In this document: one piece after another, positions 15,391-18,984 of the stretch
How the letters are laid out: every line of letters begins with the position of its first letter
Position numbering within the stretch: position 1 is the first letter of the stretch
DNA from: a virus
Taxonomy: Duplodnaviria; Heunggongvirae; Uroviricota; Caudoviricetes
Direction: 5' to 3' (one strand)
Virus record (IMG/VR): IMGVR_UViG_2675903658_000008
Span: 1 to 41,775 of that record
Length of the DNA stretch: 41,775 bases
Made by a program: the position numbers and the translations under genes
The notes under the pieces: generated by a model
What the model was told of the DNA's origin: nothing
The model's input: the letters and a program-made list of their open reading frames with translations, nothing else
Database searches by the model: none

Positions 15391-15563
15391 GACGACAGCG
15401 ACGAAGTATCACCGACATCATCTGCGAAAACTGCAAATACCTTCCAACGAAGCGCTCCAGAAATAAACGCAAGCCAATCCCAAAAGAATCTGACGTAAAA
15501 ACCTTCAACTACACGGCTCACCTGTGGGATATCCGGTGGCTAAGACATCGTGCGAGGAAATGA
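15387..15563 (+). CDS. NinD-like small Cys-containing protein
   Basis: [20 protein letters not shown]... matches recalled lambda NinD; ATGA overlap with ninB stop. Confidence 0.55.
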
Positions 15564-15565
15564 CG

Positions 15566-16510
15566 ATGACTGCGTATTACAACGAAATAGATCCGTATGC
15601 AGCGCAATGGCTGCGTAACTTAATTGACGCTGGAGAAATTGCCCCCGGTTATGTAGATGAAAGGAGTATTGAAGATGTCACACCAGGTGATTTGCGAGGA
15701 TTTACCCAGCACCACTTTTTTGCAGGAATCGGAGTTTGGAGCTATGCACTTAGAAAAGCAGGATGGCCAGACAACAAGAGTATCTGGACAGGAAGTTGCC
15801 CATGCCAACCTTTCAGCTCGGCAGGCAAAGGAAAAGGGGTTGATGACGAGCGGCACTTATGGCCGGCATTCTTCTGGCTTATTGAAAAATGCAATCCTGG
15901 CATCGTTATTGGCGAACAGGTTGCAAGCGCAGACGGCCTCGCTTGGCTCGACCTTGTACAAACTGACTTGGAAGGTGCGAACTACACCTCTGCAGGTACC
16001 GATATTTGCGCTGCGGGCTTCGGTTCTCCGCACATCAGGCAGCGATTGTATTGGGTGGCCTACTCCAACGACAAATATCAACTTTCAGCCAGAAACGCGC
16101 AGGGGAATTCAGAACCTATCTGGATGCGTGAGACTAGCGGGATGGCAAACTCCTTTAGCGAACGATGCAACAGGTTCAACGCATTGCTACAGCGGAAAAG
16201 ACAAGAGCGGAACCCCAAGAATCTGCTTGAAACTTCCAGGGACGGTGAAGCCATGTACTCATTACCGGTTAACGGCTTCTGGAGAGATGCAGACTGGCTT
16301 TACTGTAGAGATGAAAAATATCGTCCAGTTAGACCCGGCTCATTCCCGATGGTTAATGGCATTGCCAAAAGCTTGGGACGAGGCAAGTCCACACTGGGAG
16401 GAATGGCAAAGCGCAATCAAGATCAGCGAATTATTGGATATGGAAACGCAATCAATGCAGAAGTAGCAACGGCATTCGTGAAAGTTTGTATGGAGGTTGT
16501 TAATGCTTAG
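15566..16510 (+). CDS. DNA cytosine-5 methyltransferase-like protein (orphan)
   Basis: PCQPFSSAG catalytic motif IV, GEQV (ENV-like), RQRLYW (QxRxR-like); FFAGIG weak motif I; no adjacent nuclease. Confidence 0.7.
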   Translation: MTAYYNEIDPYAAQWLRNLIDAGEIAPGYVDERSIEDVTPGDLRGFTQHHFFAGIGVWSYALRKAGWPDNKSIWTGSCPCQPFSSAGKGKGVDDERHLWPAFFWLIEKCNPGIVIGEQVASADGLAWLDLVQTDLEGANYTSAGTDICAAGFGSPHIRQRLYWVAYSNDKYQLSARNAQGNSEPIWMRETSGMANSFSERCNRFNALLQRKRQERNPKNLLETSRDGEAMYSLPVNGFWRDADWLYCRDEKYRPVRPGSFPMVNGIAKSLGRGKSTLGGMAKRNQDQRIIGYGNAINAEVATAFVKVCMEVVNA

Positions 16511-16688
16511 CCTATCCCAATCCCTTCAATACCAGAAAGAAAGCGTCGAGCGAGCTTTAACGTGCGCTAACTGCGGTCAGAAACTGCATGTGCTGGAAGT
16601 TCACGTGTGTGAGCGTTGTATATATGAATGCTTAAATATGGTGGAACATAATGAGAAATATAAGCAACGTAGACGAATTAAGAAATAA
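16497..16688 (+). pseudogene. ninF-like gene with 3' end displaced by HNH insertion
   Basis: First 37 aa match recalled lambda NinF, then diverge; expected C-terminus encoded at 17161..17220. Confidence 0.45.
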
Positions 16689-17157
16689 ATTATCATATGA
16701 TGATGTTTTAGGTGTACTTAGATGGAAAGTGTCTCCTTCTAATAATGTTAAGGTTGGCAGTGTTGCTGGTTACATTAGGAGTGATGGTTATAGGATGTTA
16801 ACTATCGATGGTGTAATTACTTATGCTCACCACGTTATATGGATGATAAATAATGGTGAGATTCCATTAGGGTATAAAATTGATCATATAAATGGAGTAA
16901 GGTCAGATAATAGGCTATCTAATCTTCGATTGGTTACACACCAACAGAATGCACAGAACCAAAAGAGAAAAATAACCAATTCGTCAGGAGTGACTGGAGT
17001 ATATTTCAATAAAGAGAGATGTAAGTGGATTGCGAATATATGCGTAGATGGGCGCACCAAATATCTTGGAATATTTGCTAGCATCATTGACGCTATTGCA
17101 GAAAGGAAGAGGGCAGAAAAAGAACTGGGTTTTCATGAAAACCATGGCAGACCATAA
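16651..17157 (+). CDS. HNH homing endonuclease with AP2-like DNA-binding domain
   Basis: H-x-IDHINGVRSDNRLSNLRLVTHQQNAQN HNH motif; C-terminal AP2-like segment; very AT-rich. Confidence 0.8.
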   Translation: MRNISNVDELRNKLSYDDVLGVLRWKVSPSNNVKVGSVAGYIRSDGYRMLTIDGVITYAHHVIWMINNGEIPLGYKIDHINGVRSDNRLSNLRLVTHQQNAQNQKRKITNSSGVTGVYFNKERCKWIANICVDGRTKYLGIFASIIDAIAERKRAEKELGFHENHGRP

Positions 17158-17210
17158 CTGCGCAGAACTGATGAGCGATCCGAATAGCTCAATGTACGAG
17201 GAAGAAGACG

Positions 17211-17423
17211 ATGAGTGATTACCTGAAATGGTATCTCTGCCACCGCTGGTTAATTAAGTTTGCTGTAAAAGACTGGATGACAGCGGATGCCAACAAGCTT
17301 AAGCAAAGAAAGGACTATTACTACGCCAGAATGAAGGAAAACTACTGCTCAATTCGCACTCGCATATTTATTAAAAAAGACCTTCAGTCAATTCTTCAAT
17401 TGCGAGGGAAGGTAAATGGCTAA
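17211..17423 (+). CDS. Hypothetical protein (70 aa)
   Basis: ORF between ninF fragment and downstream nin genes. Confidence 0.4.
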   Translation: MSDYLKWYLCHRWLIKFAVKDWMTADANKLKQRKDYYYARMKENYCSIRTRIFIKKDLQSILQLRGKVNG

Positions 17424-17706
17424 CCTACGCAAAGAAGCGCGCGGCAGAGAATGCCAGGTACGTATTTACGGCGTATGCAATGGTAATCCTGAAACTACAG
17501 TTCTGGCACATTACCGGATGGCTGGAATTTGCGGAACGGGAATGAAGCCTGACGACCTGATCGGCGCATGGGCTTGTAGCGCGTGTCACGATGAAATCGA
17601 CCGACGCACCCATAATCTCGACAACAAAGACGCCAGACTTTACCACCTCGAAGGCGTGATCAGGACGCAGGCGATACTGCTGAAGGAGGGAAAGATTAAG
17701 CCATGA
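17416..17706 (+). CDS. DUF1364-like Cys/His-rich nin-region protein
   Basis: 96 aa with conserved C/H pattern recalled from lambdoid nin regions. Confidence 0.5.
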   Translation: MANLRKEARGRECQVRIYGVCNGNPETTVLAHYRMAGICGTGMKPDDLIGAWACSACHDEIDRRTHNLDNKDARLYHLEGVIRTQAILLKEGKIKP

Positions 17707-18065: not shown

Positions 18066-18250
18066 ACGCCACAATTCAAACGATACCAGAGCTTCTTATC
18101 CAGACACGAGGCAATCAGACCGAAGTGGCGAGGATGCTTTCCTGCGCAAGAGGAACAGTGCTCAAGTACAACCGAGACAGCAAAGGTGAGCGTCACGTAA
18201 TAGTTAACGGCGTCCTGATGGTCAAACAAGGCAAGAGGGGAAGACGATGA
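18062..18250 (+). CDS. ninH: NinH-like protein
   Basis: TIPELL...GNQTEVARML.C.RGTV.KY matches recalled lambda NinH. Confidence 0.7.
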   Translation: MNATIQTIPELLIQTRGNQTEVARMLSCARGTVLKYNRDSKGERHVIVNGVLMVKQGKRGRR

Positions 18251-18765
18251 GCATAAGAGAACTAAACCTCACCAAAGAGCAGCACGAGTGGCTGAATGGC
18301 TGGCTTGAACTGTGGGGCGCATGGGTTTATTCAGGTCGTCTGGAAAAGCGCATGAGCAGCGTAATAGCGAAGTTCATGGAGAGCGTAGAGCCGGGAAGAG
18401 TTATGACAAGGCCAATGTGTAATGATGATGATGGAATGTTGATTTCTCAGGTCGTCGATTCCGTCATGTGCATTGACAAGAAAGCCTTTGGAATCCTCCT
18501 CAGCTACTACGCTCATGGTTCATCTAAGCGAGCAATTGCATCCTACTATCACGCGACTGCAAAGCCACGCAAGATGTGTGGACGTGGTGGCGAGGGATGG
18601 AGAAAACCTTCACTGGCAACCTGTAGAAACGAAATTGACGACATCCTGAAAGCGTCGTTATTTGTTTTGTACCAACCAATGCAAAATGCTTTCAAAATGC
18701 GTAAACGTGTTGAGAAAGTTAAGCATGTTGCTGTTAAAAGCCTTGACATGCAATTAGCCATTTAG
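18247..18765 (+). CDS. Late-gene antiterminator Q-like protein (non-lambda type)
   Basis: Position after nin genes before lysis cassette; N-terminal EWL..W..WG.W motif; immediately followed by promoter. Confidence 0.65.
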   Translation: MSIRELNLTKEQHEWLNGWLELWGAWVYSGRLEKRMSSVIAKFMESVEPGRVMTRPMCNDDDGMLISQVVDSVMCIDKKAFGILLSYYAHGSSKRAIASYYHATAKPRKMCGRGGEGWRKPSLATCRNEIDDILKASLFVLYQPMQNAFKMRKRVEKVKHVAVKSLDMQLAI

Positions 18766-18828: not shown

Positions 18829-18903
18829 GGGTCAGTCGTATAAAGGTCATTACGGAAGGCTGTTAACCTTCTTATCGTGGTTCGAGTCCACGCTGTCCCG
18901 CCA
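18829..18903 (+). tRNA. tRNA-like gene, anticodon GTT (Asn) by hand folding
   Basis: 75 nt; perfect 5-bp anticodon and T stems, TTCGAGT T-loop, CCA end; one mismatch each in acceptor and D stems. Confidence 0.5.
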
Positions 18904-18908
18904 AATAT

Positions 18909-18984
18909 GCTGGTTTAGCTCCAATGGTAGAGCAGTCGCCTTGTAAGCGAATGGGTAGCGGTTCAAGTCCGTTAACCAGCACCA
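18909..18984 (+). tRNA. tRNA-like gene, anticodon TGT (Thr) by hand folding
   Basis: 76 nt; perfect 7-bp acceptor stem, D-arm, TTCAAGT T-loop, CCA end; one G-A mismatch closing anticodon stem. Confidence 0.55.

Follow-up and report, generated by a model that had tools for sequence, protein, structure and literature searches.

The locus described here raises the question of whether a short endonuclease gene lying in the nin region of a lambdoid/P22-like phage interrupts the gene ninF and, if so, what kind of genetic element it represents. The phage sequence is the IMG/VR virus record IMGVR_UViG_2675903658_000008, a stretch of 41,775 nucleotides (nt) that was analysed in its full length (hereafter the window) and whose positions serve as coordinates throughout. 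Its nin region comprises, in this order, NinB, NinE, a cytosine methyltransferase, ninF, a small open reading frame (ORF), YbcO, RusA, NinH and Q. A preliminary description of this DNA had proposed that a gene for an HNH/AP2 homing endonuclease has been inserted into ninF, a non-essential gene of lambdoid phages, and had left open whether the inserted gene is free-standing or part of a self-splicing intron. Based on the comparisons presented below, we consider it likely that the locus carries a free-standing HNH homing-endonuclease gene cassette inserted into the ninF coding sequence.

The interruption of ninF is evident from alignment with uninterrupted homologues. Against the intact ninF of phage vB_EcoP-683R2 there is one gap only, and the two flanks align as the two halves of one gene, as had been proposed; the insertion, previously estimated at about 550 base pairs (bp), is real and measures exactly 539 bp, with two equivalent placements of its boundaries (Table 1). 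Uninterrupted ninF has 58 codons and the interruption falls after codon 39. When the 5' and 3' parts are joined, they give a protein of 58 amino acids (aa) that matches phrog_672 from end to end (1-58 of 58, E=2.6e-36), and hundreds of uninterrupted homologues lacking an endonuclease do not show the divergence seen in the window. The start of NinF had been recognised correctly in the 5' part, followed by divergence, but the homologous start codon is the ATG at 16503, with GGAGG at 16492-96, six bases upstream, and not the TTG at 16497, which is a mere mechanical ORF start. The 5' part retains both CxxC pairs of the zinc-ribbon-like core of NinF, and its frame continues through 22 foreign codons to a stop at 16686-16688, so that the truncated ninF ORF and the start of the HNH gene overlap by 38 nt. 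The foreign 22-residue tail is probably a by-product, because it is not conserved in a second lineage of the element, L112, described below. The 3' part of ninF resumes one base beyond the HNH stop and overlaps the ATG of the downstream gene (17211); its residues had been identified correctly in the preliminary description, with an end at 17220 that is two bases too far.

Table 1. Coordinates of the interrupted ninF gene and its insert, given as window positions.
Feature	Position	Strand	Basis
ninF 5' part, codons 1-39 (MLSLSQ...HVCERC)	16503..16619	+	Pfam NinF PF05810, E=6.9e-12; alignment to uninterrupted ninF
Truncated NinF ORF, 61 aa (39 NinF residues and a 22-residue insert-derived tail, IYECLNMVEHNEKYKQRRRIKK)	16503..16688	+	ORF list
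Flank variant CGTTGT (Arg-Cys), compared with CACTGC (His-Cys) at empty sites	16614..16619	+	Junction comparison
Inserted cassette, 539 bp, 35% G+C	16620..17158 or equally 16619..17157 (one-base ambiguity)	.	Single alignment gap
Shine-Dalgarno-like GGTGG, 5 nt before the HNH ATG	16641..16645	+	Read from the sequence
HNH_3 endonuclease gene, 168 aa	16651..17157	+	Pfam HNH_3, E=1.2e-19
ninF 3' part, 19 codons (CAELMSDPNSSMYEEEDDE) and stop TGA 17216-18	17159..17218	+	Alignment; ORF list
Empty-site sequence, ...GTGTGTGAGCACTGCTGCGCAGAACTG...			Intact ninF

The cassette itself is compact and consists of a 31-nt leader with a Shine-Dalgarno site, the 168-codon endonuclease ORF and 1 nt after the stop. 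As had been noted earlier, it is very AT-rich, with a G+C content of 35% compared with 48% in the ninF flanks and 47% in the window as a whole, and this difference would speak for a foreign origin. On the + strand of the insert and its vicinity we found neither a sigma-70-like promoter nor a terminator-like site belonging to the cassette; since no such promoter lies in or near the insert, the cassette is probably expressed from the early-operon transcript, that is, of the delayed-early nin operon.

The product of the inserted gene belongs to the HNH_3 family, the match spanning residues 58-102, and also matches phrog_99, 'HNH endonuclease' (E=2.3e-70). Its HNH core reads D78-H79...N91...N100, and these residues align with the catalytic residues of I-HmuI, by sequence the sole solved relative (1U3E, over the HNH motif). 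Among 50 homologues, D78, N91 and R93 are invariant, and H79 and N100 are conserved in at least 90%. An AlphaFold2 model derived from the same 50 homologues (predicted local distance difference test score, pLDDT, 90.6) displays an N-terminal beta-rich region, the HNH core and, at residues 112-160, a C-terminal AP2-like module of three strands and a helix. The top fold match of the model in the PDB was again I-HmuI 1U3E (Foldseek E=4.5e-4), followed by AP2 domains, and the C-terminal module superposes on plant and Plasmodium AP2/ERF DNA-binding domains with a root mean square deviation of 1.2-2.1 A. The AP2 label of the preliminary description holds at the level of the fold and in 18 of the 50 relatives, where the Pfam AP2 match is significant, but not for the Pfam AP2 score of the window protein itself, which is below threshold (E=0.024). 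Taken together, sequence and model predict an HNH_3, I-HmuI-like endonuclease with a separate DNA-binding module. A packaging-type HNH protein, similar to the terminase-adjacent gp74 of HK97, was also considered and was rejected on the location of the gene in the nin region and its HNH_3 family.

Relatives of the endonuclease are present in 3,809 phage records, none of them at 60% identity or above, and the nearest, at about 51%, are found in Klebsiella siphophages. The ninF-associated lineage forms a discrete cluster of 369 member sequences at 99% identity, together with one relative at 84%. The variable sites among the copies comprise 13 synonymous and 8 non-synonymous ones, corresponding to a ratio of non-synonymous to synonymous substitution rates (dN/dS) of about 0.16, and 27 of 28 full-length copies have an intact ORF; as judged from this codon comparison, purifying selection acts on the endonuclease gene. 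At the 3' end of the gene we also observed a perfect 16-bp palindrome, GGTTTTCATGAAAACC (17128..17143), which is identical in both HNH lineages and, because it encodes the family-wide GFHENH motif, may merely reflect the protein sequence.

The cassette is polymorphic for presence and absence at one precise site in homologous targets. It occurs in 45 of 5,426 complete Escherichia coli genomes, always between two 'NinF' annotations and in full length in 44 of them, and additionally in 29 IMG/VR contigs and four JGI metagenome contigs (33 related loci), the four metagenome loci carrying the same gene at 98-99% identity. The insertion point is identical in the window and in all 29 IMG/VR loci, which were inspected at the junction, and the empty site was found in 78 IMG/VR loci and in 1,259 of the 5,426 E. 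coli genomes. Further, the history of the cassette is independent of that of its flanks, as it is more uniform than they are and sits in several backgrounds. Across 27 loci, the mean pairwise identity of the cassette is 99.5% (minimum 98.5%), compared with 86.6% for the 5' part of ninF (minimum 72.5%) and 95.7% for the 3' part, and beyond ninF the sequences are unrelated in most pairs, with at least six different genes found after ninF. Filled sites display 19 distinct 100-nt 5' haplotypes, of which five, including that of the window, were also seen as empty sites. In one locus (L007), polymorphisms of the empty-site type lie only 17 bp to the left (-17) and 4 bp to the right (+4) of the cassette, and the exchanged tracts are therefore very short. 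A homing endonuclease gene that enters a conserved target again and again would be expected to leave such a pattern, and the comparison strongly suggests mobility.

Searches of further collections extended this picture only slightly. No further lineage of the ninF-associated HNH gene was found among the GTDB species-representative genomes, the JGI metagenomes contributed only the four additional copies of the same lineage together with distant relatives, and none of the sequenced phage isolates in INPHARED has the HNH protein at 60% identity or above, though 219 of them carry the ninF flanks. The cassette is present in about 3% of the ninF-bearing E. coli genomes (45 of 1,693), compared with none of the 219 ninF-bearing isolates; this contrast could result from sampling, or insert-bearing prophages could rarely be recovered as plaque-forming phages.

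A second lineage is represented by L112 (Logan contig SRR25288770_114058, 909 bp; L112:1-600), whose HNH gene shows 84% identity at the protein level and 81% at the DNA level. It lies at the same junction of a divergent ninF (...IHVCEKC/ATATATG..., here and below with a slash marking the junction) and is followed by ybcO. A deletion has removed 27 nt at its 3' junction, so that the HNH ORF continues into what is left of ninF and overlaps with the ybcO start. Since L112 occupies the same site, the association of this endonuclease lineage with ninF predates its recent, near-clonal spread in E. coli prophages, this one short contig being the only trace of a second ninF-associated lineage across the GTDB representatives, the JGI metagenomes and Logan. 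Decaying copies were likewise observed. In the enteropathogenic E. coli reference strain E2348/69 (NC_011601.1 735687-736399; L123:1389-2101), the cassette resides in a decaying, defective prophage whose RusA gene has an internal stop and whose Q gene is partial; RefSeq lists the HNH gene there as a partial pseudogene between two separate coding sequences for 'protein NinF', without linking the halves. This pseudogene fits the usual cycle of gain and decay. In an IMG/VR locus (L029:3001-3510), a single extra G in the HNH gene shifts the frame after codon 84, which reflects either a decaying copy or an assembly error.

The presence of the cassette is linked to a change in the adjacent ninF sequence. 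All filled sites (the 29 IMG/VR loci inspected at the junction and the window) read GAGCGTTGT just before the cassette, with CGTTGT, which is found in none of the 78 empty sites; most of these read GAGCACTGC, and a few have other variants. When the 5,426 E. coli genomes were searched with a 53-mer for an empty site that has the linked CGTTG and the 3' flank of the window, no match was obtained, compared with 1,505 places in 1,259 genomes for a control 53-mer with CACTG. Empty sites with CGTTG, which could have been a footprint of precise loss or a pre-existing resistant allele, were consequently rejected, none having been found in the 78 IMG/VR loci or the 5,426 genomes. Either CGTTGT is always co-converted through its adjacency to the cassette, or it is protective of the filled allele, or both. 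The junction can alternatively be parsed as a 542-bp insertion accompanied by the loss of one TGC (3 bp), and in view of the flank change the founding event was no clean cut-and-paste.

A homing cycle that would account for these observations can be outlined as follows. An insert-bearing phage or prophage would meet a lambdoid genome with an intact ninF, and the enzyme would nick or cut the empty site around ...GTGTGTGAGCACTGC/TGCGCAGAACTG. With the filled allele as template, recombinational repair would then copy in the cassette together with a few adjacent bases (CGTTGT), and filled alleles would be protected, their site being both interrupted and altered. As a side effect, ninF would be split into a 61-aa N-terminal protein with a foreign tail and an orphaned acidic C-terminal stretch of 19 residues. 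Cleavage of the empty ninF site by the enzyme and a spread driven by the endonuclease are the steps that we infer here from the comparison of filled and empty loci.

With regard to the nature of the insert, an intein is excluded: each of the three pieces (5' part of ninF, HNH ORF and 3' part of ninF) occupies a different reading frame, and translation in the ninF frame runs into a stop. A self-splicing group I intron containing the HNH gene, the splicing of which would restore the ninF mRNA, deserves closer consideration, as HNH genes of the broad family are often intron-borne in phages, the closest structure is that of I-HmuI, and one reading of the 5' flank places a U at its end (T16619). 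This is nevertheless hardly credible for the present locus. With only 31 non-coding nt before the ORF and 1 nt after it, the insert could not accommodate a group I core of about 200 nt, and a search of positions 16300-17500 against Rfam (4,227 families including the group I model) returned no match at E<=10. Additionally, the boundaries allowed by the alignment give G/...A or U/...C, and a group I intron needs U/...G; the predicted RNA fold of the insert is not more stable than that of shuffled sequences (z=-1.26); and the 55 synonymous codon differences between the two lineages are distributed evenly along the ORF, which argues against a conserved embedded RNA. A group I intron was rejected on these four grounds, that is, the Rfam result, the RNA fold, the splice-boundary rules and the lack of conservation at synonymous sites, and a group II intron on size and boundary sequences, the insert beginning with ATATAT. 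By sequence, the question left open in the preliminary description is thereby answered in favour of a free-standing gene, which is predicted to be neither intron nor intein.

For the free-standing gene, several observations weigh against active homing. Homing is deduced from comparison, and both the cleavage and the target site are putative. The insertion is not perfectly clean, being accompanied by two to three flank substitutions or, in the other parse, consisting of a 542-bp insertion and a 3-bp deletion, and the original event was therefore no simple cut-and-copy. At about 3% of ninF-bearing E. coli genomes and 0 of 219 ninF-bearing phage isolates, the cassette is rare for an efficient homing element, perhaps owing to a recent invasion, a cost or sampling. 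Some copies decay (the partial pseudogene of E2348/69 and the frameshift of L029), and general homologous recombination, which is very active among lambdoid phages, could move the cassette between backgrounds. An alternative explanation, which we regard as unlikely, is that one illegitimate insertion into ninF took place and that the cassette has since been passed between phages by nothing more than ordinary homologous recombination in the conserved ninF flanks, the HNH protein being inactive or having another role such as inter-phage competition or defence. The high mosaicism of lambdoid nin regions, where neighbouring genes vary among loci, is in line with such passive movement, as are the flank substitutions that accompany the insertion, the rarity of the element and the existence of decayed copies. 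It accounts less well for the extremely short exchanged tracts, with polymorphisms 4-17 bp from the insert, and the 19 5' haplotypes, as together these require many recombination events very near the cassette, and a local DNA break would promote such events. Purifying selection acting on the ORF (dN/dS about 0.16; 27 of 28 full-length copies intact) and the retention of the same site in the diverged lineage L112 likewise speak against an insert carried along passively. Another possibility, and in our assessment a very improbable one, is a functional 'gene in pieces', in which both NinF fragments are translated, the 3' one by reinitiation after the HNH stop, and jointly supply the NinF function, making the insertion nearly cost-free. 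In its favour, the 5' fragment keeps both CxxC pairs as well as a start and a stop codon of its own, and two in-frame ATGs (17144 and 17171) are found within 11-14 nt of the HNH stop. The overlap of the 3' fragment with the start of the next gene is retained, which may preserve translational coupling, and no copy shows decay of this fragment; there is also a precedent in the mobE insertion in nrdA of phage Aeh1 (PMC3045599). However, neither of the two ATGs is preceded by an obvious Shine-Dalgarno site, the one at 17144 simply arises from the conserved ..ENHG codons of the HNH protein, little can be concluded from the absence of decay in copies this young (at least 98.5% identical), and in L112 the HNH frame reads through what remains of ninF after the 27-nt deletion at the 3' junction. 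For the homing cassette, a more far-reaching version can tentatively be proposed, which as a whole we hold to be doubtful: an actively homing, probably nicking HNH-AP2 enzyme would spread in a super-Mendelian manner among lambdoid/P22-like phages and prophages, CGTTGT would be an immunity mutation in the recognition site, and the split ninF would still work as two pieces, with reinitiation preserving the downstream coupling. If true, this would provide a tractable homing and marker-exclusion system within the lambda genetic toolbox.

The element can be compared with several known systems. It shares with I-HmuI, the HNH nicking endonuclease of the DNA-polymerase intron of Bacillus phage SPO1 (1U3E), the beta-beta-alpha-metal core with its D-H...N...N residues, a similar size and an elongated arrangement of an N-terminal beta region, the HNH core and a C-terminal DNA-binding module. 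In contrast, I-HmuI is encoded in a group I intron and has helical C-terminal modules, where the ninF-inserted protein, which is free-standing and only about 21% identical in sequence, has a predicted AP2-like fold. With mobE of T4-type phages, a free-standing HNH gene whose insertion divides nrdA of Aeromonas phage Aeh1 into two pieces that are encoded separately (PMC3045599, PMC2790892, PMC2988022), it has in common that a free-standing HNH gene lies in or next to a conserved phage gene without an intron or intein. However, mobE belongs to another HNH lineage, its T4-like hosts are virulent whereas those of the ninF cassette are temperate lambdoid/P22-like phages, and nrdA is essential, with halves shown to reassemble, whereas ninF is dispensable. 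The phrog_99 phage endonucleases with HNH_3 and AP2 domains, annotated as HNH or homing endonucleases, share domain family and length; they usually lie between genes, whereas the ninF lineage is a discrete cluster with a defined intragenic target. Gene 31 of the P22-like phage epsilon34, in which the N-terminus of EaE is fused in frame to a putative HNH homing endonuclease (PMC2629481), is similarly a case of an HNH homing-endonuclease gene in an accessory gene of a P22-like temperate phage. It differs from the ninF cassette, with its three pieces in three frames in the nin region, in being an in-frame fusion in the early-left operon, with an HNH protein of a different lineage, related to enzymes of Lactobacillus phages.

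In the literature on ninF, on lambdoid homing endonucleases and on free-standing prophage HNH genes we found no description of the ninF element. It is a clean case of a mobile element of a known kind, if a fairly ordinary one, and changes no concept. Work on free-standing homing endonuclease genes has centred almost entirely on virulent T4-type phages. The ninF cassette offers a compact, 539-bp example with sharp boundaries, an empty site in about a quarter of E. coli genomes and a linked candidate immunity change, and its hosts, relatives of lambda and P22, have the best genetics available. It could be used for testing the spread of such elements between temperate phages and prophages and for explaining some of the mosaic boundaries in the nin region, as well as for an annotation fix, as the two 'NinF' proteins and the HNH protein are unconnected entries in RefSeq.

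Additionally, an overlapping ORF was observed in the cytosine-5 methyltransferase gene located just upstream of ninF. The product of the methyltransferase frame (frame A, 15560..16510) is 54% identical from end to end to the methylase of phage 65FD, and a second ORF, read in the +1 frame (frame B, 15675..16466), lies entirely inside this gene. Homologues of frame B number 2,783 at 90% clustering and 8,883 representatives at 50% clustering, are about 265-340 aa long in related sequences and contain no Pfam domain. Both frames are open in 80 of 80 IMG/VR loci, which are 39-100% identical to frame B of the window, with median open lengths of 365 aa for frame A and 305 aa for frame B, compared with 47 codons for the third frame. 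Along the related methyltransferase loci (L124-L206), nucleotide diversity is highest at the third codon position of frame A at the start and end of the gene and at the third position of frame B in the gene centre and the KYRPVRPGSFPMVNG segment, and it is low at all three positions in the GEQV-to-QRR region; the distribution of diversity indicates that selection switches along the gene from frame A to frame B and back to frame A, both frames being constrained in between. Of 79 loci, 78 have the frame B ATG and 76 have GGAG 8-9 nt upstream of it, and a restricted choice of codons in frame A maintains both. Frame B features GWxTP repeats and a LNPAHSRWLMGLP motif, and AlphaFold yielded no confident fold for it (pLDDT 43). 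A methyltransferase chimera arising from frameshifts from A to B and back to A was rejected, as it did not improve the Pfam DNA_methylase score. Annotation of the two frames is inconsistent, with frame A only in RefSeq, frame B only from other gene callers and separate 'DNA methyltransferase' families for each in PHROGs. The two frames are probably a widespread, long, same-strand overlapping gene pair, and no report of such a pair in a methyltransferase gene was found in the literature. The overlapping frame looks more novel than the ninF insertion and may matter more.

Further downstream in the window, two transfer RNA genes, tRNA-Asn (GTT) at 18829..18903 and tRNA-Thr (TGT) at 18909..18984, are located directly downstream of the gene for the Q antiterminator (18247..18765).

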